This document shows, piece by piece, positions 6,651 through 37,651 of a stretch of DNA of 64,000 bases. The translations under genes were made by a program, and so were the position numbers. The stretch spans positions 13,296-77,295 of the forward strand of contig DYLD01000001.1 of NCBI GenBank assembly GCA_020722315.1, read 5' to 3'. Position 1 is the stretch's first letter. Each line of letters begins with the position of its first letter. This DNA comes from Syntrophus aciditrophicus. GTDB taxonomy: Bacteria > Desulfobacterota > Syntrophia > Syntrophales > UBA5619. The notes under the pieces are model-generated. The model saw only the letters and a program-made list of their open reading frames with translations. It made no database searches and had not been told where the DNA came from.

Positions 6651-6665
6651 CCTTGATTTCCACTG

Positions 6666-8946: not shown

Positions 8947-8960
8947 ATCTCTTATCCGTG

Positions 8961-9151
8961 GAGACCGTTGCAAAACGCCGCCTTTCGCGCTCATAAATCT
9001 TTTTCGACCCCGCTGCGTCTCGCTAAAGACTATACAGGCTAAACGCTCTCTAACGTTCGCGTTCTTAACGCCTTTCGAGTCTTGCTGCGACGGCGGGGTA
9101 CCCCGAAAAATCTTTGAAATCGCGCTTCAGGCAGCATTTTTCAAAGGTCAC
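8961..9151. repeat. ~190-bp palindromic intergenic repeat, copy A (within the cbi operon)
   Basis: It aligns by eye along its full length with 21405-21595, and in reverse complement with 43955-44153 and 46802-46998. The termini are GAGACCnTTGCAAAACGCC ... GCATTTTTCAAAGGTC. Confidence 0.85.
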
Positions 9152-9199
9152 CGTGCTCGACTTCCCCGGCCGGGCAAAAAAGCGGCCGGGACTCCGCCG

Positions 9200-11645: not shown

Positions 11646-11698
11646 CTAACCCCGATAAACCAAAGCTTCCCCGTTCTGCAAGCCGAAGGTACCGGCGG

Positions 11699-12607: not shown

Positions 12608-12659
12608 AAATCCCGACTTTCCTCTGACGTAGGCTCCACGCCTGATCCTCACATCGGCC

Positions 12660-13415: not shown

Positions 13416-13418
13416 ACT

Positions 13419-14840: not shown

Positions 14841-14847
14841 CAAAAAC

Positions 14848-15108
14848 TCATCCGAAAAGCCGTAGTTCACGGCCGGTCAATTCCAATCGCGAACCATGGA
14901 CGACCTCGGCCATCTTGCAGACGATCAACCCCATTCCCCTTGCTATAAGCTTCCACCAGGCATCCATGAAGTATTGGTCGTACTCGTCGGACAAGACAAC
15001 TTCGATTTGATCGGCCTTAATATCCAGCCCTTTGGCCGCCTTTTCCGGATCAAAATCCTTCCGCATCCGTTCACTGCCGGCAACATAGACGATTACCCCG
15101 TTTTTCAT
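14848..15108 (-). CDS. Hypothetical small protein (86 aa)
   Basis: An ORF packed tightly between exbD and cbiA on the operon strand, with a GGGG-rich RBS upstream. I recognise no family. Confidence 0.35.
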   Translation of the reverse strand: MKNGVIVYVAGSERMRKDFDPEKAAKGLDIKADQIEVVLSDEYDQYFMDAWWKLIARGMGLIVCKMAEVVHGSRLELTGRELRLFG

Positions 15109-21283: not shown

Positions 21284-21404
21284 TGCTTCTCCTCCTTTCC
21301 TCTTTATTGAATTAAATGCGGAAATTTCCTGAAAGGAAGGAGTTCCATGGCATGGCGGCTGTGCTCGACGGAATAACTTTTGTTTTCTCGAGAACTTACA
21401 TGGA

Positions 21405-21595
21405 GAGAACTTTGCAAAACGCCACCTTCGCGCTGATCGGATCTTTTTCGACCCCGCGGCGCCTCACATCGGCTTCAAAGGTTAAACGCTCTGGGATAGT
21501 TCGCGTTCCTGACGCCTTTGCAGCCTTGCTGCGACGGCGGGGTACCCCGAAAAATCAATAAATGCGCGCTTCAGGCGGCATTTTTCAAAGCTCTC
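21405..21595. repeat. ~190-bp palindromic intergenic repeat, copy B
   Basis: Same orientation as copy A. The shared core is ATCTTTTTCGACCCCGC...TAAACGCTCT...GTTCGCGTTC...CTTGCTGCGACGGCGGGGTACCCCGAAAAATC...GCGCTTCAGGC.GCATTTTTCAAAG. Confidence 0.85.
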
Positions 21596-21617
21596 ATGGA
21601 TAAAAACACAATTCCGC

Positions 21618-21669
21618 AAAAAAAACGCCACGAAAGCGCCCCCCTCCAGGGAATTCACGCCTTCGTGGC
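21618..21669 (-). terminator. Intrinsic terminator-like hairpin inside the leader of the receptor/FmdE operon
   Basis: The minus strand reads GCCACGAAGGCG-loop-GGCGCTTTCGTGGC followed by GTTTTTTTT. Confidence 0.6.
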
Positions 21670-21980
21670 ATTCTTGATAGGTCTTTTTCTGCTTATTATC
21701 GCAGATGTTTTTCTGTAACCAGCTTCTTCACCGGCTTCAATGCCGGTTTTCCACCACCGACTTCTCGGATGATTTGCGGACTGCTTATCACGACCATCTG
21801 CCGAAGTCAAGCCTTTTTCTGGGAAATTTTTCCGTTTCAGGCAACAGGTTTTAAGCAAAATTTAACCGAACCTGAAGATTTCTTTTCCGGCGACGGGTTC
21901 ATTAAAACTTAACCGAACCTAAATAATGTTGCAACAAACGGCTGCTATCATCGCCCCCAAACACGGTCAAGGAGGCTGTT

Positions 21981-22793
21981 ATGAAGACAATCAAAGCTGT
22001 GAAAGTCAAACTCGGTTATGGAAACAAGGTCGTCTTGACGGATATCGATCTGGAGGTGTCCGGAGGCGAATTTATCAGCATCATCGGCCCTTCCGGTGTG
22101 GGGAAAACGACGCTGCTGATGGCGATCAACGGCAACGTAAAGATCTTCGATGGAGAAATGTCCGTTCTCAACCACAATTTGCGAACCATCGGAAACACCG
22201 ATTTGAAATCGATACGCGCCCGGATCGGGGTGATTTTCCAGGGGTATCACCTCGTTAAGCGCCTGAACGTGCTCGACAACGTCGCCGGGGGAATGCTCCG
22301 GAAAATGAATTCCCTGCAGGCCGCCATTAAGTACTACCGGCACGACCAGTACGAGTTGATCTACGGGTACATGCGTGCGGTCAGGCTTGAAAACGAGGCG
22401 CTGCAGCGCTGCGATAGGCTTTCCGGCGGGCAGATGCAGCGTGTGGCCATCGCCCGTGCGCTTGCCCAGGAACCTGAGATCATCCTAGCGGATGAACCGA
22501 TTTCTTCCCTTGATCCGATAAGCGCGACGGGCGTGATGGATACACTGGCCAGGATCAATAAGGAATACGGCCTGACCGTGATCGCCAATCTTCACCAGCT
22601 TGAATACGCCCGGCGCTATTCCCGGCGGATCATCGGGATGAACAAAGGCCGGATCATCTATGACGGCAAGCCCGAGGCGCTCGACGACGCAACCGTCGCC
22701 CGGATTTATCAGGGAGAACGCGCCGGCGAGGTCGAACCATCGCTCGAATTCCCGCTGCCTGCCGCTGCACGGGTAGCTGTCTACAATGCGTAA
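21981..22793 (+). CDS. phnC: Phosphonate ABC transporter ATP-binding protein
   Basis: Walker A GPSGVGKTT, signature LSGGQMQRVAIARAL, and operon context. Confidence 0.85.
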   Translation: MKTIKAVKVKLGYGNKVVLTDIDLEVSGGEFISIIGPSGVGKTTLLMAINGNVKIFDGEMSVLNHNLRTIGNTDLKSIRARIGVIFQGYHLVKRLNVLDNVAGGMLRKMNSLQAAIKYYRHDQYELIYGYMRAVRLENEALQRCDRLSGGQMQRVAIARALAQEPEIILADEPISSLDPISATGVMDTLARINKEYGLTVIANLHQLEYARRYSRRIIGMNKGRIIYDGKPEALDDATVARIYQGERAGEVEPSLEFPLPAAARVAVYNA

Positions 22794-22895
22794 CCGTCGA
22801 AATGAGACGAAACAACACACCGTGAACAAGGAACTACCGTTTTTTTGAAGCAACACATCTCGCTGAACCATCATAAAATTAATAAGGAGGTTACT

Positions 22896-23780
22896 ATGAA
22901 ACAGATGTTAAGAACGGCAATTACGGTCTTGGTAATGACAGGGATCATTCTTACAAAAACGGCATTTGCAGCCGGTAACCCTTCCGACTGGCCCGCTAAA
23001 CTTACGTTCGGCATCATCCCGACGGATTCCTCGTCTAACATAACCGAAAGGACCAAAAATCTTGTCGAATACCTGGAAAAAAGCATCGGCCTACCGATTA
23101 CCGTCAAGGTAACGACGGATTACGCCGGCGTGATCGCCGGTATGCAGTTCAAACATGTTGATTTTGCGTATTTCGGCCCGAAATCGTACGTCGAGGCGGC
23201 AAAGAGAGCCAATGCGGAGGCTTTTGCCATTGAGGTCGGCGAAGACGGAACGACCGGCTACTATGGACTGATCATTACAAAGAAGGGTTCCGGACTCAAC
23301 AGCATCGCGGATATCAAAGGCAAAACATGGGCCTTCACCGACCCGAACTCGACGAGCGGGACGCTTGTCCCGTCCGTCTATTTCTACAAGGAGCTCCATG
23401 TGGCTCCCGAAAAATATTTCTCGAAGGTTATCTATTCGGGAAGTCATGCGGCTTCGATGATCGCCGTACGATCCGGCAGGGTTGATGCGGCATCCACCAA
23501 TGACCTCGATATGGCCCGGGGGGAAGGAAAGACATGGAACTCAGAACAGGATTTCAACATCATCTGGAAGTCTAAACTGATCCCCGGTTCGCCGATGGCA
23601 TACAGGAAAGACCTGCCGCCATCTCTGAAAAAGAGGATCAAAGACGCCTTTCTCGCCTACAGGGATCCTGCCGGCCTCGAAATGCTGAAAATCAAGGGAT
23701 ATGCGGACGGAAATGATTCCGTCTATGATCCCATCAGGGATCTGATTGAGGTCAAGGCCAAAATGGTCGCAAAGAAGTAA
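22896..23780 (+). CDS. phnD: Phosphonate ABC transporter substrate-binding protein
   Basis: Start trimmed to the ATG after the AAGGAGG RBS. It has a signal peptide and the PhnD-like stretch FGIIPTDSS...YFGPKSYVEA...FTDPNSTSG. Confidence 0.85.
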   Translation: MKQMLRTAITVLVMTGIILTKTAFAAGNPSDWPAKLTFGIIPTDSSSNITERTKNLVEYLEKSIGLPITVKVTTDYAGVIAGMQFKHVDFAYFGPKSYVEAAKRANAEAFAIEVGEDGTTGYYGLIITKKGSGLNSIADIKGKTWAFTDPNSTSGTLVPSVYFYKELHVAPEKYFSKVIYSGSHAASMIAVRSGRVDAASTNDLDMARGEGKTWNSEQDFNIIWKSKLIPGSPMAYRKDLPPSLKKRIKDAFLAYRDPAGLEMLKIKGYADGNDSVYDPIRDLIEVKAKMVAKK

Positions 23781-23807
23781 TAGTTTTAAAAGAGGGCAAA
23801 TTCCCCC

Positions 23808-24689
23808 GTGCCGGGCCATGGATGTTGTGCCATGCAGCTTGAAGAGATCAAAAAGAGAACCAATCCGCTCAATCGTTATAACCTGGCGGTTCTGCTAATG
23901 ATGTTTGTACTTGCAACGTGGAGCTGGAAGTCCACCGAGATGAGCGTCGGTGTCCTCGCAAAGGGCTGGCTTAATATGATTGTCTATCTGACGGGAAATC
24001 CGGAGATCGAAAACAGCGGGTTTTTCCCTCCGGCTTCTAGCTCGACCGGGATTGTGAAGTATGTCAAGCTGATGGTTGAAACGGTGCAGATGGCCTTTCT
24101 GGCGCTGATTCTGTCGGTGGCGATCTCTTTCCCGCTCGCGTTTTTTGCCTCGCGCAACACGCTGGAGATCATCTTTCCCGGGCAGCGGCTTTTTGACAGG
24201 GTGATCCGTAAGGTCTCCTATATCACAACCCGGTTCGTGGCGAACCTGGCCCGCTCGATCAACGAACTGGTCTGGTCGCTGATGTTCGTCTCGGCGGTGG
24301 GACTGGGACCGATGCCCGGGATACTCGCGCTCGGCGTGCACACGGGCGGGGTTTTGATCAAGCTGTTTTCCGAGGGAATAGAGAATATCCAGAGCGAGCC
24401 GGTAACCGCGCTGACCGCGACGGGGGCCGGGCCGCTGAAGGTGATACGCTACGCGGTGATCCCGCAGATATCGCCGTTTTTTGTCTCGATGCTCCTCTAC
24501 CGCTTCGAATCGGATGTCCGCTCGGCGACGATTCTCGGTTTCACCGGCGCGGGCGGCATCGGGGTCTATCTGTACGACAAGCTCCGGTCTTATGAAAACA
24601 GGGATGTGACGACAATGCTGATTATCATTATCATCACAGTCGCCATTGTGGATCGGATGAGCGCCTGGATACGGAAAAAATATACCTAA
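23808..24689 (+). CDS. phnE: Phosphonate ABC transporter permease
   Basis: Contains INELVWSLMFVSAVGLGPMPGILAL...YRFESDVRSATILGFTGAGGIG. The start may instead be the ATG at 23832. Confidence 0.8.
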   Translation: MPGHGCCAMQLEEIKKRTNPLNRYNLAVLLMMFVLATWSWKSTEMSVGVLAKGWLNMIVYLTGNPEIENSGFFPPASSSTGIVKYVKLMVETVQMAFLALILSVAISFPLAFFASRNTLEIIFPGQRLFDRVIRKVSYITTRFVANLARSINELVWSLMFVSAVGLGPMPGILALGVHTGGVLIKLFSEGIENIQSEPVTALTATGAGPLKVIRYAVIPQISPFFVSMLLYRFESDVRSATILGFTGAGGIGVYLYDKLRSYENRDVTTMLIIIIITVAIVDRMSAWIRKKYT

Positions 24690-24790
24690 AAAAACGCTCG
24701 CCTCTCCCCCTTAAAGCCTTCTTTCCGGGAACACCCTCCACCCGGGAAGAAGGCGGGGAGTCGGCATATGAAAGAGATGGGAGGATCTGT

Positions 24791-25225
24791 ATGAACATGG
24801 AAGATCAAGAAGCAGCCGGATGGGATCACGTTTTATCGCGGACGGATCTCAAAACGGACCGCCGCATTCTGCTTGTGGTATCGGAAGGTTTGACTGTTCT
24901 GCGGGAGCCGCGTCCGGCGCTGGTGATGATGGCGGTAACGGACAGCTCCGGCGAAAGATTCAATCTCGGAGAGGTTTTGGTCACCGAGGTGGAGGTTTCC
25001 TGCAACGGCGAGAGGGGCTATGGAATCGCCGTAGGGGATTCCGCCGTCAAGGCGATGGCGATGGCGATTGTTGCCGCGGTGATGAAAGGGGAAAACACGG
25101 CCGTAAAGAGGCGACTGCTCAAACTTTTGGAAAGGATAAAACGGAGCAGCCGGCAGGCTCTGGATGTGGAAAATGCCCTTTATGCTGCGACAAAGGTTGA
25201 TTTTCAAATGATGGTGAAAAAATAG
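24791..25225 (+). CDS. phnG: C-P lyase core complex subunit PhnG
   Basis: Contains GERFNLGEVLVTE and a C-terminal ATKVDFQMMV, compared with E. coli PhnG ASRVDFFTMV. Confidence 0.8.
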   Translation: MNMEDQEAAGWDHVLSRTDLKTDRRILLVVSEGLTVLREPRPALVMMAVTDSSGERFNLGEVLVTEVEVSCNGERGYGIAVGDSAVKAMAMAIVAAVMKGENTAVKRRLLKLLERIKRSSRQALDVENALYAATKVDFQMMVKK

Positions 25226-25807
25226 ATGCTTTTTAAAACCGGTTCAGAAGATCAGAGCGTATTCAGGACTATCCTGCAGGCGGTCAGCCATCCCGGCCGA
25301 ATTTTTGTGCTTCCGGAAGCGTCCGATAGGCGAAAGAAGTGGGCTTCGTTGCTGAAACTTCTTACCGCGGTTATGGACGGCGAGATAACGCATCATATCG
25401 TAGACGGCGCATTGTGCCCGGACTTTTCCGATCTTCTCTACGCCGCGACAAAGAGCCCCGCCGTCGCTCTCGAATCTGCGGATTTCGTTATTGTCCCCGG
25501 CGGAGATACAAAAGGGTCCATCACGTCGGCGAAGCGGGGGACGCCGGAGTATCCCGACATGGCGGCAACAATTGTCTACGGGGTTCGTTTTATTGCCGCG
25601 GGCGAGGCTCAGGATGACGGGATTTTTTTACAGGGCCCCGGCATACATGGACGGATTGCTCTGCCGGTGATGGACGGCCTCAACAGCAATGATCTGCGGC
25701 TTCTTTTCGAGATCAACAATGATTTTCCGCTCGGCGTGGACACGCTCTTCGTAGATGAAGCGGGAAGGGTTGTCGCGATTCCGCGCAGCACCCGGATGAC
25801 CGACTGA
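25226..25807 (+). CDS. phnH: C-P lyase core complex subunit PhnH
   Basis: Contains FRTILQAVSHPGRIF, plus matching position and size. Confidence 0.75.
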   Translation: MLFKTGSEDQSVFRTILQAVSHPGRIFVLPEASDRRKKWASLLKLLTAVMDGEITHHIVDGALCPDFSDLLYAATKSPAVALESADFVIVPGGDTKGSITSAKRGTPEYPDMAATIVYGVRFIAAGEAQDDGIFLQGPGIHGRIALPVMDGLNSNDLRLLFEINNDFPLGVDTLFVDEAGRVVAIPRSTRMTD

Positions 25808-25823
25808 ATAAAGAAGAAGCTTT

Positions 25824-26957
25824 ATGGGATATGTTGCGGTAAAGGGTGGCGAACAGGCGATCGAAAACGCCTGCAACCTTTTTGCGTACCAGCGCATAAA
25901 GGGCGGCTCGCGTCCGCTTGCGGTCAAACAGATAGAAGAGCAACTCTATTTGCTTATTGATCGCGTGATGGGTGAAGGGTCGCTCTACGCACCCGAACTC
26001 GCTGCGCTTGCCGTCAAACAGGCCGCGGGGGATACGCTGGAGGCATCGTTCATGCTTCGGGCCTACCGTACGACGTTGCCGCGGATCGCCTCTACGTTGC
26101 CCGGGTCAACCGCGCGGATGAGGATATTTCGGAGGATTTCCGCATCGTTCAAGGATGTTCCGGGAGGTCAGGTGCTCGGTCCGACATCCGACTACACGCT
26201 CCGGCTTCTCAACTTCGATTTGTTTGATGAAACGAAGGCCTCGGCACAGCTTTTCCGCCGGTTCGTCGAACACAACCTGCGGAGCCATGAAAGACTTCCC
26301 GACACCTTTCCCAAGGTCATCGAAATCCTAAGGACGGAAGGATTGATCGTCAATCCGAAATCCGCCGGCTATAGCGACGAAAGTGACGGAGAACCTTTTG
26401 ACATCACCAGGGAGTCCCTTGTTTTTCCCGCTGCCCGCTCCGCCCGCTTACAGGCGATGGCGAGAGGAGAGACCGGCGGTCTTTTGCTTCTGGCATATTC
26501 CAGCATGCGCGGCTACGGTGATGTCCACCCGATTGTCGGCGAGCTGCGTGTGGGCTATCTTCCCGTTGTTGTTCCGGATCCTTATACAAAAGCGCCCCGG
26601 GTAGCCGGAGAGGTCAAGGTGACGGAGGCCGAGATCATTGCCCGTTACGACAGCGGATCCGGGAAACCTCTCTTTACGGTAGGTTACGGTCTGTGCTTCG
26701 GGCAGAACGAGATCAAGGCGATTTCGATGGCGATTCTCGATAGGGCGATGGAGGCCGCGGAAAACAACTCCCCCGCAAATGATCAGGAGTTTGTTCTTTC
26801 TCATATCGATGGGATCGAGTCGATGGGGTTCTGCAATCACTGGAAGCTTCCCCATTATGTTGATTTTCAGTCGGATCTTGACCGACTCAGAAAGGCGCAG
26901 GCATACCATGCCGATCGTGGAAAAGAGCAAAAAACAGACACGACAAATTCTCTATAA
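25824..26957 (+). CDS. phnI: C-P lyase core complex subunit PhnI
   Basis: The N-terminus is MGYVAVKGGEQAIENA. Size is 377 aa. Confidence 0.85.
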   Translation: MGYVAVKGGEQAIENACNLFAYQRIKGGSRPLAVKQIEEQLYLLIDRVMGEGSLYAPELAALAVKQAAGDTLEASFMLRAYRTTLPRIASTLPGSTARMRIFRRISASFKDVPGGQVLGPTSDYTLRLLNFDLFDETKASAQLFRRFVEHNLRSHERLPDTFPKVIEILRTEGLIVNPKSAGYSDESDGEPFDITRESLVFPAARSARLQAMARGETGGLLLLAYSSMRGYGDVHPIVGELRVGYLPVVVPDPYTKAPRVAGEVKVTEAEIIARYDSGSGKPLFTVGYGLCFGQNEIKAISMAILDRAMEAAENNSPANDQEFVLSHIDGIESMGFCNHWKLPHYVDFQSDLDRLRKAQAYHADRGKEQKTDTTNSL

Positions 26958-27774
26958 TTTTGCATTTCTCGACGATGTCGCAAAAAGGGAAATCCGGCGC
27001 AAGATATTAAAGGCCGTGGCTGTTCCGGGCTATCAGGTGCCTTTCGGCTCCCGTGAAATGCCGATTGCCCGCGGCTGGGGTACCGGCGGACTGCAGATTA
27101 CCCTTTCACTGATAGAGCCGTCCGACACGCTCAAGGTGATTGATCAGGGATGCGATTACAGCGTCAATGCGGTCAATATCAAGAAATTCGTGCAGGCCGT
27201 CACCGGCGTCAGAATAACAACCGATACGACCGAGGCGACACTGATTCAGACGAGGCACCGGATCCCCGAAGAACCGATGACCGAGGATCAGATCCTAGTG
27301 CTGCAGGTGCCGTATCCGGAGGCGCTGCGGGAGGTGGAGCCCTCCGAGCAGAAAACCCGTGCGATGCATGCGGAAGGCGACTACGGCCGCATGTGGCTTT
27401 TTCTCTACGAAGACATCATCCATTACGGCGAGGTACGGCTGAGCTACCGGTATCCGGTGCTGGTCAACAACAAATACATCATGGATCCCAGCCCTATCCC
27501 GCGCTGGGACGTGCCGAAGCTCAACATGGCGCGGACGCTTTTTCTTTTCGGGGCCGGGCGTGAGAAAAGGATCTACGCGGTTCCCCCGTACACCAGCGTG
27601 GAGCCTCTGCAATTCGAGGACCATCCGTTCCGGGTCGAGTCGTTCGCCGGCAAGAGGTGCGAACGATGCGGAGCGGAGGATACGTATCTTGATGAGATCA
27701 TCGCGGAAGACGGGGTAACGAGGCACTATTACTGTTCCGACACCTCGTTCTGCGACAAGAGGAGACGAACATGA
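26908..27774 (+). CDS. phnJ: Alpha-D-ribose 1-methylphosphonate 5-phosphate C-P lyase PhnJ
   Basis: Start trimmed to MPIVEK.... Contains YNFAFLDD..REIRRKILKAVAVPGYQVPFGSREMPIARGWGTGG and a C-terminal Cys cluster (CERCG...YCSDTSFC). It overlaps the phnI end by about 50 nt. Confidence 0.85.
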   Translation: MPIVEKSKKQTRQILYNFAFLDDVAKREIRRKILKAVAVPGYQVPFGSREMPIARGWGTGGLQITLSLIEPSDTLKVIDQGCDYSVNAVNIKKFVQAVTGVRITTDTTEATLIQTRHRIPEEPMTEDQILVLQVPYPEALREVEPSEQKTRAMHAEGDYGRMWLFLYEDIIHYGEVRLSYRYPVLVNNKYIMDPSPIPRWDVPKLNMARTLFLFGAGREKRIYAVPPYTSVEPLQFEDHPFRVESFAGKRCERCGAEDTYLDEIIAEDGVTRHYYCSDTSFCDKRRRT

Positions 27775-28610
27775 AGCCTCTGCTGAAGGTCTCCCGTCTC
27801 TCCAAGCGCTATGGGAACGGATGCCTCTTTTGCGCAAACGAAAACGGCGCCGGATTGGTCGGGAACCAGTGCCCGCACTGCAAGTCCGTATTTGCATGCC
27901 GCGATGTCTCGTTCGACCTTTTTCCGGACGAGGTGCTCGGCATCGTCGGGGAAAGCGGGTCGGGGAAAAGCACACTGGTCAGGCTTTTGCATTTTGAGGA
28001 AGAGGCCACCGGGGGAGAGGTCTTCCTGAATGCGTCCACAGGCGAGGAAAAGTCGCAAAACGTGCTTGCGTTGGGCCCTTTCGCAAAACGGCAGCTCAGA
28101 AACCGTAAGTTCGGCATCGTCTATCAGAACCCCCAGATGGGGCTCAGGATGGATGTCAGCGCGGGCGGCAACGTCGCGGAAAAACTACTCGCGGCGGGCT
28201 GGCGCAACGTCGGCCTGATACGGGAAAGGGCGGGAGAACTCCTAAAAAAGACCGAGATTCCGCTCAGCCGGATGGACGAAGCGCCCCGCAATTTCAGCGG
28301 AGGCATGCAGCAGCGCGTCCAGATCGCCAAGGCCCTGTCGAATAAACCGCGGATTCTGCTGCTGGACGAAGTAACGACCGGCCTTGATTTATCTGTTCAG
28401 GCGCGGGTGCTCGATCTCATCAAGAATCTCCAGCGGGAACTGAAACTCTCCGCCCTTGTGGTTTCCCACGACCTCGGTGTCATCCGTCTTTTATGTCACA
28501 GAACCATCGTGATGCGCTACGGGAGGGTCGTCGAGTCCGGCCTGACGGACCAGATCCTCGAGGATCCGCAGCATCCATACACGCAGCTGCTTGTCAGCTC
28601 GCGATTGTGA
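27771..28610 (+). CDS. phnK: C-P lyase system ATP-binding protein PhnK (with a Cys4 insertion)
   Basis: Contains [28 protein letters not shown] and a C-terminal [13 protein letters not shown], compared with E. coli PhnK. Confidence 0.85.
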
Positions 28611-28621
28611 GTCGGAAATTT

Positions 28622-29311
28622 ATGCTGAAGGCGACAAATCTATCAAAAAGTTTCGTATTGCATGCCCTCGATAAAAAACAGATCGACGCATTCCGGAAGG
28701 TCTCTTTCGAACTGGCGCCGGCGAGGTTTCTCGGCATCCGGGGTATCAGCGGCTCCGGAAAGAGTTCGATACTGAAATGCATTTACCGAACCTACCTTCC
28801 GACGGAAGGAACGATCAACTACCATTCCCGACGGGGTGTGTTGAATCTGGCGGATCTTCCCGAACAGCAAATCCTTGCGCTGCGCCGCGAGGAAATAGGC
28901 TTTGTTTCCCAGTTCCTGCACGTTCTGCCACGGGTTTCGGCGCTTGATCTCGTCGCGGAGCCGCTTTGGTCGCAGGGAGTCCCGCTGCCGCAGGCAAAGA
29001 AACGGGCAAAAGAACTGCTCGGCTATCTGAATATTCCGCCTGCTCTTTATGATGCCTATCCCGCGAACTTCAGCGGCGGGGAGCAGCAGCGGATCAACAT
29101 CGCCCGGGCGGTGATCTGGAACCCCCGACTGTTGCTGCTGGACGAACCCACCGCGTCGCTGGACGAAGGGTCCGTCAAACGGGTGATTTCGCTTCTGAGG
29201 GAACTGAAGAATGCCGGGACGGCGATGATCGGGATTTTCCACGATACAGCCGTCATGGATTCCATTGCGGATGACATATATCATATTAAACCGGTGAGCC
29301 ATGAAACCTGA
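28622..29311 (+). CDS. phnL: C-P lyase system ATP-binding protein PhnL
   Basis: Start trimmed to [11 protein letters not shown]. Contains GISGSGKSS and [14 protein letters not shown]. Confidence 0.8.
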
Positions 29312-30464
29312 ACGTTTTTTTGTAGATAACGGTACTGTCGTTCTTCCTGAACGGGTAATGGAGAACGCCGTTGTTGTCATTGAAAAGGGGCGGATCGCCG
29401 CCGTCGAAAACGGCAAAAAACGATTCAACGGCGCGCGCCGGATCGATGCGTCCGGCTGCCTTGTGCTGCCGGGGCTGATTGATTTGCACAGCGACGCGCT
29501 GGAAAGGGAACTCGAACCGAGGCCGAACGCCTTTTTCCCGACGGAGATGGTCCTGCGTGAACTCGACAAAAAGCTTGCCGCCGCGGGCATTACGACGATC
29601 TACCACGCGATCTCATTTGCCGAAGGGGAAATAGGAACCCGCTCAAACGAGATGGCGAAGCAGATTGTCGAAACGGTAAAAAAGCTGACGGACAAGTTCC
29701 GGGTTCGAACAAGGGTTCATGCCCGCTACGAGCTTACCGACATCGAGGCACTGCCCATCGTCCGGGATCTGATCGGCGAACACAGAATTGATATGCTCTC
29801 GTTCATGGATCACACCCCCGGGCAGGGTCAGTTCCGCGAGGCCGCCTCGTTCCACCGGTACTACAGCGTAGTCTACAGCAAAACGGACATCGAGATAGCC
29901 GAGATGATAGAAAAAAAACAGGCGGCGCATGCCTCGACGGTGGAACGTCTGCTCTATTTGCTTAATCTATGCCGATCCTCCGAAATCCCGCTGGCCTCGC
30001 ACGACGACGACTCGAGGGAGCGCCTCGCGTGGCTCAACGAACAGGGCAGGTTCATTTCGGAATTTCCGGTAAATATCGAAGCGGCCCAAGCGGCGCGGGA
30101 TTTCGGGTTTTCGGTCAGTATGGGTGCACCGAATGCGCTCAGGGGAACCTCCGTAACCGGCAATCTGAGCGCCCGGGAGGCGATCGAGCGGAAACTCTGC
30201 AACATCCTCTGCTCGGACTATGTGCCGTCGGCGCTGTTGCAGGGGGCATTGAAACTCGTTGATACAGGTATGCTGACGATGCCGGAGGCGATCAAACTCG
30301 TTTCGCTGAATCCGGCCCGTGCGGTAGGCATCGACCATGAAACCGGCTCGCTGGAGCCTGGTAAGGCTGCCGATTTTCTGCTGTTGAAAAAAACAAACGG
30401 CTACGGAGACGTGACAAAAACCTTCGTCACCGGAAAGGAAATCTATTCGACATGCTGGAGATAG
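29301..30464 (+). CDS. phnM: Alpha-D-ribose 1-methylphosphonate 5-triphosphate diphosphatase PhnM
   Basis: An amidohydrolase-fold protein. Contains [15 protein letters not shown] and ...ASHDDD.... Confidence 0.85.
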
Positions 30465-31399
30465 GAAGTCAGATCAACGAGGTAAGAACGGACGGGGATC
30501 TCGATGTGCTGCGACGGGATCTGGACTACTTTACAATGATCGGTCTCGAGGCAGCGGAGATTCCGCCGCACGGGCTCGATGCGATCAAAAACGGACAGCT
30601 TGATAAAACGAGAACGAAGAAGATCCGAAAGATCCTCAGGGACTATAAGCTGATCTATTCCGTGCATGCCCCTGATCCGCTGAATCTCATGGAGAAGGCG
30701 AAAGCGGCGCTCCATATCCAGGTTTTTCAGGCAAGCATGGAATTTGCAGGAGCGATCGGAGCCGGAATCGTCGTGTACCATGCCGGACGTCCCATTTCGG
30801 AAGAGGCGTTTCTGGATGTACCCCACACCGAGCTGCCGACGGGGCAGTTGAAGGCGTTGCAGGAGCTGGAGGCCGAACGTCTGCAGAAAATGGCCGACGC
30901 GTTTCCGGACATCACGATCTGCGTCGAAAACGCCCGCCCCTATCTCGGCCATTCACCGTATTGCTACGGTGAAGAACTCGACAAACTGCATGCTCAAATC
31001 AAGATGATCAACCGCCCGAATGTCCGCATTGCGCTCGATCTCGGCCATCTGTATATGTCCGCTCGCTTTTTCTCGTTCAACCCGGTTGTCGCCGTTCGGG
31101 AGGCGCGGGAATCCATCGGGCATGTCCATATCCACGACAATTTCGGGGATGCGGTGTATTACGGGGAAAAACAGCAAACCCATCAACTGCCGTTCGGCCG
31201 GGGGGACTCCCATATGCCGGTCGGATGGGGCATCATTCCGTTTCGTGAAATCCTGGGGCAAATGCTTGACTGTTATGAAGGACTTTTCATCATGGAGCTG
31301 CGCAGCCGCTACTTTTCGGCTACGGAGGCATCCTTGAAAAATTTGAAGGAGATTCTCGCCCCGTTCAAGCGGCAGCGAAAGAAGCATCAGAAGCATTGA
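30452..31399 (+). CDS. Xylose-isomerase-like TIM-barrel (sugar phosphate isomerase/epimerase / AP-endonuclease-2 family) protein
   Basis: The motif series HAPDP, VVYHAG, CVENAR, DLGHLY, HVHIHDN and IMELR fits the metal-ligand pattern of that fold. It overlaps the phnM end by 13 nt. Confidence 0.65.
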   Translation: MLEIGSQINEVRTDGDLDVLRRDLDYFTMIGLEAAEIPPHGLDAIKNGQLDKTRTKKIRKILRDYKLIYSVHAPDPLNLMEKAKAALHIQVFQASMEFAGAIGAGIVVYHAGRPISEEAFLDVPHTELPTGQLKALQELEAERLQKMADAFPDITICVENARPYLGHSPYCYGEELDKLHAQIKMINRPNVRIALDLGHLYMSARFFSFNPVVAVREARESIGHVHIHDNFGDAVYYGEKQQTHQLPFGRGDSHMPVGWGIIPFREILGQMLDCYEGLFIMELRSRYFSATEASLKNLKEILAPFKRQRKKHQKH

Positions 31400-32303
31400 T
31401 GAAGGGTTGAAGTGTTGCCCCTGTCCGGAGATTCTCTTCGTCGTAGAGCGTCTCGATGATTCCATCGACGAGACCCTTTCTCGAAACATGGATAAAATCG
31501 GCGCCGCTCCATTTTAGACACTTGAGAAAGATATCGGCGGCGGGAACAATGACATCCGCCCTGTCCGGACGCAGGCCGAGCCGACTGATTCGGGCATCCA
31601 CGCTAAGCCCTGACAGGGTTTTGAATGCAGTCTCCAACCGGCGGACCTTGATCACCGAAATCCCGGCTTTCCCGTACATTTTGAAAAGCTTGTTGATGTT
31701 CCCGCCGGAACCTACCGGATAGATCTCCGAGCTTTTGCCCTTCAGGGGGCGGAGCCATTCCTGAAGCCGTTGCCATTCGCTCTCGGCAACGAGGTTATCC
31801 CTCAGACGGATCGTTCCGATGCTGAACGACGCCGATTGTATTGTCGTCTTGCCTTTTACAAAAGAAAGCTCGGTGCTGCCGCCGCCGACATCAATGTAGA
31901 GTTTGTATTTGAAGGGCTTCGGTACGAAAATATTGTTGACCCTTGCAAGAATACGCGCCTCTTCTATGTCGTCGACAATAACGACATCTATCCCGGCCTC
32001 CTGCCGGAGGCGCTCCAGTACCGCTTTTTTGTTGGCCGCTTCCCGCATCGCGGCGGTCGCGCAGGCAAGGCATCGTCGGGGTCTGTAGATATCAAGCAGC
32101 AACCGGAAGGCCTGAAGCGTGGACACGAGATTTTCCGTCTTTTCCTCCGAGACGGCTCCATAACGAAAAACATCCTCGCCGAGGCGAACAGGAACTCTGA
32201 TCAGGTTATACTTGGTTACAACACCGTCTTGCTCCCCAACGCCCGCGATCAGCAGGCGGACCGCATTGGAACCGATATCAATTCCGGCAAGAACCATCTG
32301 CAT
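31365..32303 (-). CDS. Ppx/GppA-family exopolyphosphatase (two-domain short form)
   Basis: Contains LAGIDIGSNAVRLLIA and ...YIDVGGGSTELSF. Confidence 0.8.
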   Translation of the reverse strand: MQMVLAGIDIGSNAVRLLIAGVGEQDGVVTKYNLIRVPVRLGEDVFRYGAVSEEKTENLVSTLQAFRLLLDIYRPRRCLACATAAMREAANKKAVLERLRQEAGIDVVIVDDIEEARILARVNNIFVPKPFKYKLYIDVGGGSTELSFVKGKTTIQSASFSIGTIRLRDNLVAESEWQRLQEWLRPLKGKSSEIYPVGSGGNINKLFKMYGKAGISVIKVRRLETAFKTLSGLSVDARISRLGLRPDRADVIVPAADIFLKCLKWSGADFIHVSRKGLVDGIIETLYDEENLRTGATLQPFINASDASFAAA

Positions 32304-33504
32304 TTTCTCCTCTTGCGGCAGGCAGCTTTAGGCTTTTGCCTGCCGGATAGTTGTCGGTAATGGTGTTACGAACACAAGTCTTCTTCGCCGCGAACAGAAA
32401 GCCGCCGACAACCGCCGTAAACGGGGCGACGGCCACGAGGCCGAAACTGCCGACGACCGTTTTCATAAGCTCCGCGGCGATGTAATTGAGATTCAGTATA
32501 TGAACCGCCGGAATGCCCTTCGACAAAAGAACCATCAACAACGCCATATATCCGGAAACATAGGCCATCAGTAGCGTCGTAACCATCGTATTGACCATCG
32601 AGCGCCCCATCGTGAACCCGGAACGGATCAGCTGCGCCGGGGAAAGGTCGGGGCGCTTGACGGCTACCTCGTGCATCGAGGCGGCCACGTCGATCGCAAT
32701 ATCAATCACGGCGCCCGAAGCACCCAAAAAAATCGCGGCGATGAAAAGACGCCCGAGATTCAGGCCCTCAAACCCTGAATAGAGAAGCGTTTCCGAAAAC
32801 GGCTGGATCGCCCCATGCAAACGAAAGGCGGGAAACAAAAGCCAGGAGATCGTCGCCGTCAGCACGACACCGAGCAGCGCCCCGATCCAGGCGGTTAGGG
32901 CCGTCCGGTTGACGCCAGCGACGAGAAACAGCGTAACCCCGGAAATAAACGAAACCACGAGCAGCGATATCCAGACTGGGTCGGACCCCCTCAGAATACC
33001 GGGCAGCATCAGCTTCATGATCAACAAAATCGCGAACGCAAACGAAATCAGCGAACGGATGCCCGACCAACCGGTAAACGCGATCAGCAACCCGGCGAAA
33101 AGCAAAACGAGAACGCCTTCCACACCGAGGCGGTAATGATCATAGGCGGCGGCCGAGGCTATTTCGCTTCCGTCGGTATCCATGACGATATAGGCCCGGT
33201 CGTTCTTCTTGAACATCTTGTCGCTTTCCATCTTGCCGATCAAATCGTTTTTCGCGTCGATGATCCGGCCCTTATACGGTCCCTCGATAATCCTGACCCT
33301 CAGGTTCTGGCTCCCTGCTTTGAGTATCCCGTATTGCTGGATCAGTGAGTTGTCAACCTCCTCGACAAGGCCGACATATCGCTCCTCTTGGGTCGTGTAG
33401 GGACTTTTATAGATGTCCGGCAAAAGCAACAGGATGCCGGAAACCACAAGGATGACAAAAACAAAGACAGCTTCGGACTTCCAGGAGATCTTTAGCGGTT
33501 CCAA
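32278..33504 (-). CDS. YibE/F-family membrane protein
   Basis: 408 aa. It has an N-terminal soluble-like domain followed by about 7 TM segments with a YibE/F-like composition. Confidence 0.6.
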   Translation of the reverse strand: MEPLKISWKSEAVFVFVILVVSGILLLLPDIYKSPYTTQEERYVGLVEEVDNSLIQQYGILKAGSQNLRVRIIEGPYKGRIIDAKNDLIGKMESDKMFKKNDRAYIVMDTDGSEIASAAAYDHYRLGVEGVLVLLFAGLLIAFTGWSGIRSLISFAFAILLIMKLMLPGILRGSDPVWISLLVVSFISGVTLFLVAGVNRTALTAWIGALLGVVLTATISWLLFPAFRLHGAIQPFSETLLYSGFEGLNLGRLFIAAIFLGASGAVIDIAIDVAASMHEVAVKRPDLSPAQLIRSGFTMGRSMVNTMVTTLLMAYVSGYMALLMVLLSKGIPAVHILNLNYIAAELMKTVVGSFGLVAVAPFTAVVGGFLFAAKKTCVRNTITDNYPAGKSLKLPAARGENADGSCRN

Positions 33505-33523
33505 ATCTTTCCTCTCTTTACCT

Positions 33524-35128
33524 TTATTTTTTCAATCCCGCAATTTTCACCACTTTCGCGTGGATGTCCGTCTGGTCGTAATATCCGTTAAACAGTGCTG
33601 AGCCGACCCCGATTGCCGAGGTCTGGACCGGAACCCCCGTATGGGAATACGATGTCCAACCGATGCCCGCCTTATTGTTGAGAATCGTGGTCAGCTTGAC
33701 ACTCAAAGGTTCATAACCTCCGTATAGCAGATAGGTGTAGTCATCCTTCGCGCGTTCCTTTTTGCCGAGCATGCTCTGCATAAACGCATCCCGTAAGCAC
33801 TTGAGCTCTAGCTTCGTCAGGGCCATACTGTATTTAAGGGATTTCTCCGCCTGCTTGCCGGCCTTTTTCTCTTCCTCGGAAGCGTCTTTCGCCTTTCCCG
33901 CGATCACGATCTTTTCGAGTCTCGCCTCTTCTTCGGGCGAAAGCAGATAAAGACCAAACGTGTCGCGAATCAAAGGGAGGAGATCTTCAAGTTTTGCATC
34001 GGCAACCGTATGATTCTTCTTGTATTCCTCAAGCCTTTTTCCGAACTCAATATAACTTGCCTTCTGATACTGGATCTTATCGACGAAAGAAGAATAGCGT
34101 GTGCCGGCGAAGCCGATCGTCATTCCTCCCGTTTCATGGTCGCCGGTTACGACAATCAGGGTCTCCCGGGGATGTTTGACGTAAAACTTGAGTGCTTCAT
34201 TAATCGCGTCGTCAAAAGCTATCGTGTCGTGGATCGAAGCCGCGGCGTCATTGGCGTGACAGGCCCAGTCTATCTTGCCCCCCTCAACCATCATAAAAAA
34301 GCCTTTGGGGTTGTAGAGAAGCTCGATCCCTTTTTGTGTGTATTCTGCGAGGCTTACATGATCTCTTTTGTCGAATTGGTCGATGGTATAGTACATCGCT
34401 GCATCCTTGTCCACCTTGTCATTCATCGCGATGACCTTGCCGGCGCCTCGCTTGATCCGCTCGAAACCGGATCTGCCAATGTATATGCCGTAGCCGTTTT
34501 TTCTTGCGATATCCAGCGCGTTCGGCTTTCCGGGATTTTTGGGATCACCAGGTCTGAGCATTTGTCCGCCGGCAAAATAGTCATATCCGGAGTTGGCCAG
34601 GGCAACGCTGATATCATACATCTGACTCCGATGAGGGACATGCGCATAGAATGCCGCCGGCGTTGCATGATCCAGGGAAACGCTTGAAAGGATGCCGATT
34701 TTCCATCCCTTCTTTTTCGCCCATTCCGATATGTTCGGGTAGGATATCTTCTGCGCCGGGTCCATGCCGATTACGCCCGATTTTGTCTTAAACCCGCACG
34801 CAATGGCCGTCGCGGTCGAAGCGGAGTCGGGAATGACACTTGTCAAATCGTAGGTCGTGTTCACCCCCTGGGCCGGAAATGTATTCATCACGAGCCTTAC
34901 CTTTTCAGGCCTGTCGGCACCCCTTGCGTTCGCCAGGTACAATTCGGCGGCATTTCTCTGCGCGATTCCCATGCCGTCGCCGATAAACACGAATACATAC
35001 TTTGCCATTGCGGATGCGGAACCGGCCATCGCCGCAGCCTGGCCGAATAACAGGAAAGCAGCCGCGACAACCATGACGATGAAGCTTTTTTTGTCAAAGA
35101 CAACCTTCTTTAAACCTTTTGTCAGCAT
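33524..35128 (-). CDS. Alkaline phosphatase (PhoA family), exported
   Basis: Start trimmed to MLTKGLKK... after a GGAGG RBS. It has a signal peptide and the motifs FIGDGMG, DSASTATA, TGDHETGG and GWTSYSHTG. Confidence 0.8.
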   Translation of the reverse strand: MLTKGLKKVVFDKKSFIVMVVAAAFLLFGQAAAMAGSASAMAKYVFVFIGDGMGIAQRNAAELYLANARGADRPEKVRLVMNTFPAQGVNTTYDLTSVIPDSASTATAIACGFKTKSGVIGMDPAQKISYPNISEWAKKKGWKIGILSSVSLDHATPAAFYAHVPHRSQMYDISVALANSGYDYFAGGQMLRPGDPKNPGKPNALDIARKNGYGIYIGRSGFERIKRGAGKVIAMNDKVDKDAAMYYTIDQFDKRDHVSLAEYTQKGIELLYNPKGFFMMVEGGKIDWACHANDAAASIHDTIAFDDAINEALKFYVKHPRETLIVVTGDHETGGMTIGFAGTRYSSFVDKIQYQKASYIEFGKRLEEYKKNHTVADAKLEDLLPLIRDTFGLYLLSPEEEARLEKIVIAGKAKDASEEEKKAGKQAEKSLKYSMALTKLELKCLRDAFMQSMLGKKERAKDDYTYLLYGGYEPLSVKLTTILNNKAGIGWTSYSHTGVPVQTSAIGVGSALFNGYYDQTDIHAKVVKIAGLKK

Positions 35129-35159
35129 GATAACCTCCTCTGAAATGTTGTATGAAAGG

Positions 35160-36302
35160 TTAGGCAGGGCGTACGATTTTTGCCACCGCCTCGGCCAATC
35201 CATCTTTACCCTTCAGGCTGTAGGTATGGTAAAGGGTCATCGCCGTAGCCTGAGAAAACACATAATTTCTGAAACAATGAAACATCTCTCCATTCAAATC
35301 CTTTTCCGTCATTGCATATCTTTCCACGGCGATGGTCTGCATGACAGGAAGCAGCCATTGCACGGCGGGCACGGTGAGAACCCAATCATGATCTCCTAAG
35401 TGGCAGACAAAGTTTTCCATCCGCCTCGGCTGAGGCAGTGTATTCCCATTTGTGCCCAGTAGGCCCTTTTCCCGCGGATCTACGCCGCAGAGAATGGATG
35501 CGGCCTTGATCCAGCCGACGACATCCGCCTCGTCTTTTGGCGATCCCGGATGATTGTGGGCGCAGGCCTGGGCCACGCATATTTCAGCAGGGATGTTCCG
35601 GAAGATACTTTCCGCTATACTGTAAACGTGATGTTCGCCGGTGCCGGCAAGAGGCAGTTCTGTGCGGGAAGAGGCGTCTTTTCCCCACTGAAAAACCCAT
35701 GGTTTATGCAAATCGTGGAGCACCTGGGAGGCTATAATCATATCCCTGTCGAGTTCATAGCCGTAAATGTCCCTGTACCCGTCAAATATTCCCAGAGATA
35801 CCTTAACATTCAGAGCGGTGTGCGTTACGAGTCCGCCCGGATAAGAGTGATGGCTCTGGTATCCGCTTCCGGGAGCGGAATAGAAAGGCTGGGGACTTTT
35901 TCTATAGTCGGCGGTGGCGGGCAAAAAATTCTCAAATGATGTTCCTTTGAGAAGATGTTTTGCCTGCAATTCCTCCCAAACGGATTTTCTTGTCTGGCTG
36001 TTTTCGAGCGGCCCAAAGAAAAGCGGAGCTGGATTCGCCAGAATTTCCACAACCTGCCGGCGGAGCTGAGCGTTCTTTATTGTGGACACCGTCATTTGCA
36101 GATAATCCCACGAATCCATTACCAGTTTTGAATTCTCCGCCATCTTTTTCACCGACATGCCAATGCATTCATCCAGACTGATTTTTTTGACGTCCGCCCA
36201 GACGAATTTCGGCATTGCGGCCGCCGCTATCGCGATGGCTCCCGTCGCGGCGCTCAGTTGCAAAAACTCCCTTCGACCCATAATGACGCTTTTTTTCTCC
36301 AT
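35160..36302 (-). CDS. Tat-signal HD-domain-like metal-dependent phosphohydrolase
   Basis: The start MEKKSVIMGRREFLQLSAATGAIAIAAAA carries a twin-arginine motif. HD-type ligands are present: SHHSYPGGLVTHT and VLHDLHKP. Confidence 0.5.
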   Translation of the reverse strand: MEKKSVIMGRREFLQLSAATGAIAIAAAAMPKFVWADVKKISLDECIGMSVKKMAENSKLVMDSWDYLQMTVSTIKNAQLRRQVVEILANPAPLFFGPLENSQTRKSVWEELQAKHLLKGTSFENFLPATADYRKSPQPFYSAPGSGYQSHHSYPGGLVTHTALNVKVSLGIFDGYRDIYGYELDRDMIIASQVLHDLHKPWVFQWGKDASSRTELPLAGTGEHHVYSIAESIFRNIPAEICVAQACAHNHPGSPKDEADVVGWIKAASILCGVDPREKGLLGTNGNTLPQPRRMENFVCHLGDHDWVLTVPAVQWLLPVMQTIAVERYAMTEKDLNGEMFHCFRNYVFSQATAMTLYHTYSLKGKDGLAEAVAKIVRPA

Positions 36303-36575: not shown

Positions 36576-37310
36576 CTACGAGGTCTCGCGAACTTCCCGA
36601 AAATGGGTAACCTCCACCCCCTCTTCATCTTTTAGAAGCGCCTCTGCATTCGTAAGGGCCTTTTGCATATCTTCGTCCGGGGTCTTTGAAATTTCTCCGT
36701 GTCCGGGATAGAATTCGTTTATCTTCCTTGTCGCCAGAAGACTGATGGAATTGATGTAATCGCCGACGCTTCCGGATTCACCGATGTAGGAAAGTTTACC
36801 TCCCGCAAAGAGGGTGTCCCCGGTGAAAAGAATCTTGAAAGCAGACTCATAGATGCAGATGGAACCCGACGTATGTCCGGGGGTATGGATCACTTCCAGA
36901 CTGTAGTTCCCCAGATCAAAGCGGGACCTGTTTTCCAGCCAGATGTGGACTTTGAGAGAAGGCTCATTGAGGTCTCCCGATTTATACATGGTAACGTATC
37001 TGTCTTCCACGGTGATCTTGGTGGCGGCAAAACGATGGGCGGCGATGAGGGCGTAATCCTGGAAATACCGATTCGCTCCGATATGGTCAAAGTGCTCATG
37101 GGTATTGACGACGATATCGATATCCCTGACCTTGAGCCCCAGTGCAAGCAGGGATTTCTGCAACCCGGGGAAATTTTTGTCCACGCCCGAATCAATGAGA
37201 AGATTTTTGTAATCGCCCTTGATAAGATAGCTGTGACTGCTTGTCTCCTCGCCTCTGATCAGGAATATATTAGGGCATAACTCCGTAATCCGATCATTGT
37301 TTGCCATCAT
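36576..37310 (-). CDS. Metallo-beta-lactamase (MBL)-fold hydrolase
   Basis: Contains VNTHEHFDHIGAN and ...HTPGHTSGS...TGDTLF. Confidence 0.8.
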   Translation of the reverse strand: MMANNDRITELCPNIFLIRGEETSSHSYLIKGDYKNLLIDSGVDKNFPGLQKSLLALGLKVRDIDIVVNTHEHFDHIGANRYFQDYALIAAHRFAATKITVEDRYVTMYKSGDLNEPSLKVHIWLENRSRFDLGNYSLEVIHTPGHTSGSICIYESAFKILFTGDTLFAGGKLSYIGESGSVGDYINSISLLATRKINEFYPGHGEISKTPDEDMQKALTNAEALLKDEEGVEVTHFREVRETS

Positions 37311-37651
37311 TTTCCTCTTGACTCTTTCTTGGCCGTTTCCCTGTTTTCATAAATATGGAAGAGACAATCCAAGCGATTTTGCGTTATATATTTCATGATT
37401 TCGGGGTTTAGGGAGCATAACTTCAAGTCCCCTCTCAAAAGGTTGATTTCTTTCCTTATACTGCTCAGGACGCCGACAACGGTGATCGGTTCAAATTTTT
37501 CCAATTCTTTCATGTCTATAATCACCCTCATGCCCGTTTCCTTGAGATAAGGGAACAGACATTTCCTGGCCATGACGGCCTCGTTTTTTCTGGTTTTTCC
37601 CGATACCTCGATCAGATAGAAACCATTTTCTTCAACAATGCGATAGTTCAT
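37307..37651 (-). CDS. STAS-domain protein (anti-sigma-factor-antagonist-like)
   Basis: 114 aa with a STAS-like pattern (VIIDMKELEKF...LRGDLKLCSLNPEI). It shares a 4-nt overlap with the MBL gene. Confidence 0.6.
   Translation of the reverse strand: MNYRIVEENGFYLIEVSGKTRKNEAVMARKCLFPYLKETGMRVIIDMKELEKFEPITVVGVLSSIRKEINLLRGDLKLCSLNPEIMKYITQNRLDCLFHIYENRETAKKESRGK

Follow-up and report, generated by a model that had tools for sequence, protein, structure and literature searches.

An endonuclease IV-like TIM-barrel protein as a candidate cyclic-phosphate hydrolase of C-P lyase operons without phnP and phnN

Introduction

How is the cyclic phosphate formed by carbon-phosphorus (C-P) lyase processed when the operon encodes neither PhnP nor PhnN? 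The question is raised by a 64-kb stretch of a Syntrophus aciditrophicus assembly (GCA_020722315.1; contig DYLD01000001.1, positions 13,296 to 77,295; here called the window). Its phn operon has the order phnCDE-GHIJKLM and ends with a gene (positions 30452 to 31399, plus strand) for a xylose isomerase-like triosephosphate isomerase (TIM)-barrel protein of Pfam family PF01261, hereafter the TIM protein. In the established pathway, PhnJ makes 5-phosphoribosyl 1,2-cyclic phosphate (PRcP), which PhnP of Escherichia coli opens to ribose 1,5-bisphosphate, and PhnN turns the latter into phosphoribosyl diphosphate (PRPP); variant operons without PhnP and PhnN exist (PMC10574752). According to a survey as cited in that article, phnP is present in 27 of 54 phn operons, leaving about half without it (PMC10574752). 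The sulfate reducer Desulfotignum phosphitoxidans has an "atypical" cluster of this kind, lacking phnN and phnP, and uses phosphonates as sole phosphorus source, with no replacement named (PMC4046663). Desulfobacula toluolica Tol2 and Desulfobacter curvatus are listed there as further C-P lyase carriers. Since such a cluster supports growth on phosphonates, something must replace PhnP in these operons. Many phnP-less operons, including those of cultured, phosphonate-using sulfate reducers, have no assigned phosphorus-releasing enzyme.

Here, we report that the TIM protein is a conserved accessory component of this C-P lyase operon type. Its conservation, predicted fold and candidate metal ligands make it rather probable that it is a three-metal phosphoesterase that processes PRcP. 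The pathway is a known one, and comparative genomics supports the TIM protein well as a new, non-homologous candidate for a known step.

Results

A scan of one genome per species returned 299 relatives of the TIM protein. The best 80 loci (47 to 60% identity) were taken with 10-kb flanks, and all locus counts given here refer to these best 80 of the 299 relatives, with phn genes located by tblastn using the Phn proteins of the window. The loci belong to Desulfobacterales, Desulfobaccales, Syntrophales, Desulfobulbales, Geobacteraceae/Desulfuromonadales, Nitrospirota and two Methanocella metagenome-assembled genomes (MAGs). Within 10 kb of the TIM gene and on the same strand, phnI, phnJ or phnM was found in 71/80 loci. 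Four further loci lie on short contigs and show only phnCDE, because the contigs end, and one locus is uninformative because its TIM gene sits at a contig edge. The co-occurrence of the family with phn genes, which a first-pass annotation of the window had set as a test of the proposal, thus extends to 75 of the 80 species-level loci, usually with coupling to phnM.

The gene directly upstream of the TIM gene is phnM in 51/80 loci and phnE in 14/80, the latter with the order phnHIJKLM-CDE-TIM that is typical of Desulfobacula and Desulfobacter. Where phnM precedes it, the start of the TIM gene overlaps the phnM stop in 45 of the 51 loci, by 7 nucleotides (nt) in 38 and by 13 nt in 6; these lengths are approximate, as the gene calls in the loci are crude calls of the longest open reading frame (ORF). 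In one locus (L013), the TIM gene comes first. The TIM protein is therefore a conserved accessory component of this operon type, and it appears to be a fixed part of a widespread C-P lyase operon variant that lacks phnP and phnN.

Some loci have features of their own. Two contigs binned as Methanocella, a methanogenic archaeon, carry the gene (L034:3-3646 and L082:9944-10975), the former with two TIM copies in the order phnM-TIM-hexapeptide transferase-TIM on a contig of only 4.6 kb. The presence of C-P lyase in a methanogen would be noteworthy, but a binning error is possible. One Nitrospirota operon (L067) holds two phnM copies, located before phnG and before the TIM gene (2853-4016 and 8829-10007). 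In another locus (L037:4055-8819), the TIM gene is intact and phnI, phnJ and phnM appear fragmented; either the operon is decaying or the assembly contains frameshift errors.

In a protein library clustered at 50% identity, the whole TIM clade is covered by one representative, and 74 further representatives match at E ≤ 1e-30; genomic contexts were examined for some of these 74. Placement after phnM persists down to 37% identity. The gene of a 44% identical relative (P0121) follows phnL-phnM, that of a 39% relative (P0126) follows phnM in a full phn operon with pstCAB-phoU downstream, and that of a 37% relative (P0129) again follows phnM in a full phn operon. In the 39% branch, a 65-amino-acid ORF without a Pfam match stands between phnM and the TIM gene (L087:7807-8004, also in L088 and L089). 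A second 37% relative (P0128) is encoded between a hexapeptide transferase and a glycosyltransferase, with no phn genes seen. Two relatives at 35% identity are linked to transporters. One (P0136, L097:2705-3982) carries a fused zinc-ribbon domain (PF12674) at its C-terminus and is flanked by ABC-transporter genes and a low-molecular-weight phosphatase. The other (P0141, L098:1755-8576) has genes for a Ugp-like ABC importer and a LacI regulator on one side and for a fusion of a Na/inorganic phosphate (Pi) cotransporter with PhoU on the other, with another PF01261 gene 5 kb downstream; this context suggests that the branch may have a phosphodiester-scavenging role. A 32% relative (P0159) has a context without phosphorus-related genes.

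Is a known enzyme for the PhnP or PhnN step encoded beside these operons? Using only E. coli PhnF, PhnN, PhnO and PhnP (from NC_000913) as queries in tblastn (E ≤ 0.01), we found no homologue of any of the four in the window, in agreement with the first-pass annotation. The same search gave no match to PhnP or PhnN in any of the 80 loci, with PhnO matching 23 loci and PhnF 7. A Pfam survey of about 50 further ORFs of the window likewise revealed no PhnN, PhnP, PHP or 2H protein. One metallo-beta-lactamase (MBL) protein of the window (36576-37310, minus strand) was considered as PhnP and rejected, as its listed NCBIfam matches are of the B3 beta-lactamase and glyoxalase II types and its BLASTP E value against E. 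coli PhnP is 0.19.

We also clustered 1,411 crude ORF products from the loci. Besides phnC to phnM, the TIM protein is the sole family common to these operons, and every other accessory gene occurs in at most 14 loci: a PhnO-like GNAT protein in 14, the known phn-associated hexapeptide transferase TIGR03308 in 11, PF01663/PhnA-like proteins in 6 to 8, a GntR regulator in 5 and a methyltransferase in 3. No DUF1045 gene was seen among the accessory genes annotated in the TIM-type operons. Three Nitrospirota loci have a YfcE-type metallophosphoesterase between phnK and phnL (L019:7447-8172, L029:1019-1747 and L063:7441-8166), and Metallophos (seen in L056 and L075), SixA-like His_Phos_1, NUDIX and PHP-domain proteins appear as single cases.

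We then characterized the TIM protein itself. Its ORF starts with ATG and encodes 315 amino acids, and it is not a chance ORF, since a search of 5.8 billion proteins returned 683 homologues at E ≤ 0.001, the top ones 89 to 100% identical. The best 120 of the 683 are 53 to 100% identical and come mostly from Desulfobacterota MAGs, under the label "sugar phosphate isomerase/epimerase." The protein passes PF01261 (AP_endonuc_2/xylose isomerase-like TIM barrel) over residues 30 to 290, with 107.1 bits against a threshold of 31.1 (E = 1.6e-30). NCBIfam has no model for the family, and the best matches all fall far below their cut-offs: CbiR (NF041277) with 30.5 bits versus 105, nfo (TIGR00587) with 24.7 versus 129.65, and iolE with 18.5 versus 290. 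The PhnPP model NF041661 was absent from the NCBIfam matches at E ≤ 0.01. Judged by these curated models, the TIM protein is a member of the PF01261 superfamily that falls outside the Nfo and CbiR families and apparently also outside the epimerases. Inspection of the N-terminus revealed no signal peptide.

An AlphaFold2 model built with 83 sequences (pLDDT, 90.3; pTM, 0.91) has alternating strands and helices that form a (beta/alpha)8 barrel. Foldseek searches against the PDB matched ketose 3-epimerases, among them L-xylulose-5-phosphate 3-epimerase, the Methanocaldococcus jannaschii protein MJ1311 (3wqo) and endonuclease IV, all with E values of 1e-10 to 1e-13, and the probability was 1.00 for many structures of the PF01261 family. 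The highest TM-score belongs to MJ1311 (TMt, 0.83), which is also the only clear solved relative by sequence (E = 2.4e-13).

Aligned with E. coli endonuclease IV (Nfo), the TIM protein contains a counterpart for each of nine residues that we take to be the ligands of the trinuclear metal site of Nfo (H69, H109, E145, D179, H182, H216, D229, H231 and E261). The mapping was settled by a 12-sequence alignment that included Nfo. Eight residues pair directly, by MAFFT and by hhalign: Nfo H109, E145, D179, H182, H216, D229, H231 and E261 with H110, E159, D196, H199, H226 (or, as candidate ligand, H228), D252, H254 and E282 of the TIM protein, respectively. Nfo H69 corresponds approximately to H72, with a local shift of 1 to 3 residues. 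The motifs also align when the family profile is compared by hhalign with the single Nfo sequence, at a probability (1%) that is too low to mean anything. All nine candidate ligands are invariant in 83 database sequences and in 79 sequences from the loci and the window, and in the AlphaFold2 model each of them occupies the C-terminal end of a strand of the barrel or the loop just after it. The first-pass annotation had noted a plausible E/D/H/E metal-ligand series. That series is real (E159/D196/H226/E282, the core also found in ketose 3-epimerases) but incomplete, as it lies within the larger nine-residue set. The presence of the trinuclear ligand set beyond E/D/H/E makes a hydrolase more plausible relative to an isomerase, and the active site looks to be of the phosphoesterase type.

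Four arginines are also conserved. In the 79 sequences, R113 and R286 are invariant, R162 is present in 78 and R284 in 76. Of these, all sampled phn-linked relatives retain R113, R162 and R284, which several of the others have lost; R286 is conserved more widely. The clade further has an insertion of 17 to 20 residues at about positions 231 to 250, between strand 7 and the D252/H254 loop, which MJ1311 and Nfo lack.

Within the window, Pfam and NCBIfam bear out the phnCDE-GHIJKLM operon of the first-pass annotation gene by gene, all on the plus strand. The directon opens with phnC, the phosphonate ABC transporter ATPase (21981-22793; PF00005, 105.9 bits), followed by phnD for the periplasmic phosphonate-binding protein (22845-23780; PF12974 Phosphonate-bd, E = 1.5e-71; start equivalent to 22896 in the gene calls of public contigs, as in L001) and phnE for the transporter permease (23808-24689; PF00528). 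The C-P lyase core subunits are encoded by phnG (24791-25225; PF06754, 68.8 bits), phnH (25226-25807; PF05845, E = 1.1e-32) and phnI (25824-26957; PF05861, E = 6.6e-142), and the radical-SAM subunit that cleaves the C-P bond by phnJ (26908-27774, start according to the public gene calls; PF06007, E = 1.1e-143). Then come the two non-transport ABC ATPases, phnK (27771-28610; top match TIGR02323, 255 bits, below the cut-off of 302.85) and phnL (28622-29311; TIGR02324, 256.7 bits versus a cut-off of 256.3), and phnM, the RPnTP diphosphatase (29301-30464; TIGR02318, 394.1 bits versus 390.55; NF011990, 434.6 bits). The longest ORFs of phnJ and phnL start at 26779 and 28493, well within the preceding genes (regions 26779-26957 and 28493-28621). 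These long overlaps in the ORF list are artifacts of taking the first start codon, the public calls being 26908 and 28622. The overlap between phnM and the TIM gene is real: the phnM stop (TAG) occupies 30462-30464, giving the 13 nt originally described for the 315-residue ORF. A promoter and terminator scan of positions 21000 to 32500 found no terminator between phnM and the TIM gene, and promoter-like sites in this region were no commoner than in shuffled sequences. Identical copies of the TIM gene, with unchanged gene order, are present on three public metagenome contigs.

The Pfam survey places cobalamin biosynthesis genes and TonB-dependent receptors upstream of the operon. A large anaerobic cobalamin cluster at 2590-14870 (minus strand) encodes two CbiK, CbiD, CbiC, CbiG, four TP_methylase proteins, a CobB/CobQ-type amidase and a TonB-dependent receptor, and an FmdE-domain protein is encoded at 17901-18953 (minus strand). 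In our judgment, this cluster lies near a CbiR-like superfamily member by chance. Downstream are Ppx/GppA, YibE/F and alkaline phosphatase genes, an MBL and STAS pair and iron-type transporters, and farther on are the housekeeping genes cysS, asd, lptD and rpoA and genes for ribosomal proteins.

The alkaline phosphatase, YibE/F membrane protein and Ppx/GppA genes (31365-35203, minus strand) directly adjoin the operon, with Ppx/GppA convergent to the TIM gene and overlapping its 3′ end by 35 nt. Alkaline phosphatase and YibE/F genes also occur at L048:3588-6277, L051:2391-5080 and L060 (15638-17200 onward), and in the first two of these loci the TIM gene is followed, in the same orientation, by the PhoA-YibE/F pair. 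The region looks like a phosphorus-starvation gene island. The pair of a STAS-domain protein and an MBL-fold hydrolase (PF00753; not PhnP) at 36576-37651 (minus strand) is found near TIM-type operons in six loci, the others being L013:11895-13017, L017:15445-16555, L020:11066-12152, L023:11629-12769 and L027:9232-10303. In L013, it comes directly after phnM on the same strand. The pair might form a further module of phosphorus starvation or an accessory module of phn operons.

Discussion

The TIM gene is retained in these operons and commonly coupled to phnM, the operons hold no phnP or phnN, the protein has an endonuclease IV-type center with additional arginines, and CbiR offers a precedent in the same superfamily; from these together, we infer PRcP hydrolysis. 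Gene order, conservation, fold and ligand set are shown above, and the substrate, products and regiochemistry given here are deduced from them as the most plausible assignment. The TIM enzyme would be a cytoplasmic (beta/alpha)8-barrel phosphoesterase with a three-metal center like that of endonuclease IV, in which a metal-activated water opens the cyclic diester of PRcP. The four invariant or nearly invariant arginines would bind both phosphates of PRcP, the one at position 5 and the cyclic one, and such extra arginines would suit a bisphosphorylated sugar. The surroundings of the 35% relative P0141 are likewise a phosphorus-scavenging context, and we count them in favor of this assignment.

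A second step is possible, in which the phosphomonoester is also removed to give ribose 5-phosphate and Pi. PhnPP, an enzyme of the PHP fold, hydrolyzes both ester bonds, and endonuclease IV has 3′-diesterase and 3′-phosphatase activities. Double hydrolysis by the TIM enzyme would make PhnN unnecessary; the absence of another conserved gene and the ability of endonuclease IV to act as a phosphatase favor it, and the scattered extra phosphoesterases of some lineages favor a split of the two steps between enzymes. We put forward a PhnPP-like dihydrolase activity only tentatively.

Several observations weigh against a role in PRcP hydrolysis. In four of the 80 loci, no phn genes were found near the TIM gene within the available flanks; in a neighbor-joining tree, these unlinked copies nest within phn-linked clades and thus look relocated or paralogous. 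The fold does not decide function, because ketose 3-epimerases rank as high as endonuclease IV, and the clustering of the ligands is deduced from strand positions in the predicted model. In L029, a PHP/CehA-like protein (4577-5269) is encoded directly after the TIM gene, and in other lineages the TIM gene is followed by phosphoesterases of the Metallophos, His_Phos_1, NUDIX or PF01663 types. Such varied partners imply that the TIM enzyme may perform one of the two hydrolytic steps, or another. Finally, these genomes may have phnP, phnN, PhnPP or DUF1045 at other sites.

Could the enzyme act before C-P cleavage instead? It might hydrolyze phosphonate esters, or other organophosphorus diesters taken up by the cell, so that PhnI receives free phosphonate, or it might trim another intermediate. 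The relative tied to a Ugp-like importer and Pi transporter rather than to phn genes, and the one tied to an ABC transporter, would fit this role, as would the 14 loci that have the TIM gene after the phnCDE transporter genes instead of after phnM; moreover, D. phosphitoxidans uses phosphite and phosphonate esters (PMC4046663). However, the commonest position is in translational coupling to phnM, the N-terminus lacks a recognizable signal peptide, and the consistent absence of phnP and phnN from the operons would be left unexplained. We consider such a role unlikely.

The enzyme could also be a phosphomonoesterase only, acting on ribose 1,5- or 2,5-bisphosphate as a PhnN substitute, while PRcP is opened by an unlinked or lineage-specific MBL, metallophosphoesterase or PHP protein. 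Candidates for the latter are present in some operons, namely, the YfcE-type enzymes, the L029 PHP protein, the Metallophos proteins of L056 and L075 and the MBL and STAS pair near six loci. Yet each of these is limited to a few lineages (at most 8 loci), whereas the TIM gene is universal in the operon type. The window MBL, furthermore, is unlike PhnP, and the L029 PHP protein is not PhnPP, scoring 19.7 bits against the NF041661 cut-off of 500. This division of labor therefore seems improbable to us.

We give about the same low weight to a sugar-phosphate isomerase or epimerase that would convert a pathway product such as ribose 1,5-bisphosphate or ribose 5-phosphate for central metabolism, with PRcP opened by an unlinked enzyme. 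The source annotations and the epimerases among the top Foldseek matches agree with this possibility, and the E/D/H/E core is common to those enzymes. Nevertheless, the remaining endonuclease IV ligands (H72, H110, H199, D252 and H254) are invariant as well, the best NCBIfam matches are the phosphodiesterase CbiR and nfo rather than any isomerase, and no linked gene would be left for the essential PhnP step in 75 operons. As for a DNA-repair endonuclease IV or a cobamide-remodeling CbiR that merely adjoins the operon, the ligand set, the top NCBIfam match and the cobalamin cluster 16 to 25 kb upstream speak for it, but scores far under the cut-offs and conserved neighbors that are phn rather than cbi genes in 75/80 genomes make it highly improbable and rule out membership of the TIM protein in CbiR.

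If the TIM enzyme does hydrolyze PRcP, the phosphonate pathway would be closed for a large group of anaerobes, and hundreds of genes now labeled "sugar phosphate isomerase/epimerase" could be renamed. We found no literature linking this family to phn operons, although most subscription journals lay outside our coverage, so an earlier mention is possible.

How does the TIM protein compare with known systems? Endonuclease IV (E. coli Nfo; PDB 1qum and 8rly) shares the PF01261 superfamily, has counterparts of all nine candidate ligands and matches in Foldseek with an E value of about 1e-10. The TIM protein is only 17% identical to Nfo, has the 17- to 20-residue insertion and the clade-specific arginines, and occurs in a phn context rather than one of DNA repair. 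MJ1311, deposited as a "D-tagatose 3-epimerase-like protein" and closest among solved structures by both sequence and TM-score, has similar His/Asp/Glu ligand motifs, including the HxHxHDN strand (HMM alignment), and the nine zinc ligands of endonuclease IV are reportedly conserved in its structure. It differs in its low identity (about 20%), in lacking the insertion at 231-250 and the arginine pair of the ELRSRYF motif, and in having no known link to phn genes.

CbiR of Akkermansia muciniphila, discovered through its genomic neighborhood, is a metal-dependent AP_endonuc_2 member whose substrate is a small-molecule ribosyl phosphodiester; its activity requires conserved His/Asp/Glu residues (PMC7733943). 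It belongs to the same superfamily as the TIM protein and is its best NCBIfam match, but the conserved neighborhoods differ. Beside CbiR, the endonuclease IV superfamily would gain a small-molecule cyclic phosphodiesterase if our assignment is correct.

The remaining comparisons are with enzymes of unrelated fold. E. coli PhnP has the substrate and pathway position that we propose for the TIM protein, and phnP lies three genes after phnM, at the operon end; PhnP has an MBL fold with a dinuclear site and no sequence similarity to the TIM protein. PhnPP, or cyclic phosphate dihydrolase (NF041661), stands in for PhnP, to which it is not homologous, in operons that have no PhnN either, and its PHP fold differs from the TIM barrel; PHP enzymes also use a trinuclear metal site. 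The 2H-phosphoesterase DUF1045 ("rcsF" in Podzelinska et al. 2009) was proposed as a PhnP substitute from phnP-less operons (PMC10574752, PMC11893972). Like the TIM protein, it is a PhnP substitute predicted from operon association, but it has a different fold and metal-independent 2H chemistry.

The first-pass annotation had proposed the TIM protein as a third, non-homologous solution for cyclic-phosphate or ribose-bisphosphate processing. The proposal gains from the linkage to phn genes, the lack of PhnP and PhnN matches at the loci and the phosphoesterase-type site, but its ranking needs correction: because DUF1045 had already been proposed and PhnPP characterized, the TIM family would be a fourth candidate. 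In its fullest form, which we regard as possible rather than likely, this fourth type would be a trinuclear TIM-barrel "cyclic phosphate dihydrolase" that converts PRcP to ribose 5-phosphate and Pi, replaces both PhnP and PhnN, and is standard in anaerobic Desulfobacterota, Nitrospirota, Geobacterales and perhaps Methanocella. In that case, its gene could serve as a marker, in anoxic sediments and digesters, of working phosphonate utilization and of the release of methane from methylphosphonate. If the family performs the PhnP step at all, the TIM fold would, alongside the MBL, PHP and 2H enzymes, represent another independent enzyme recruitment to one reaction.

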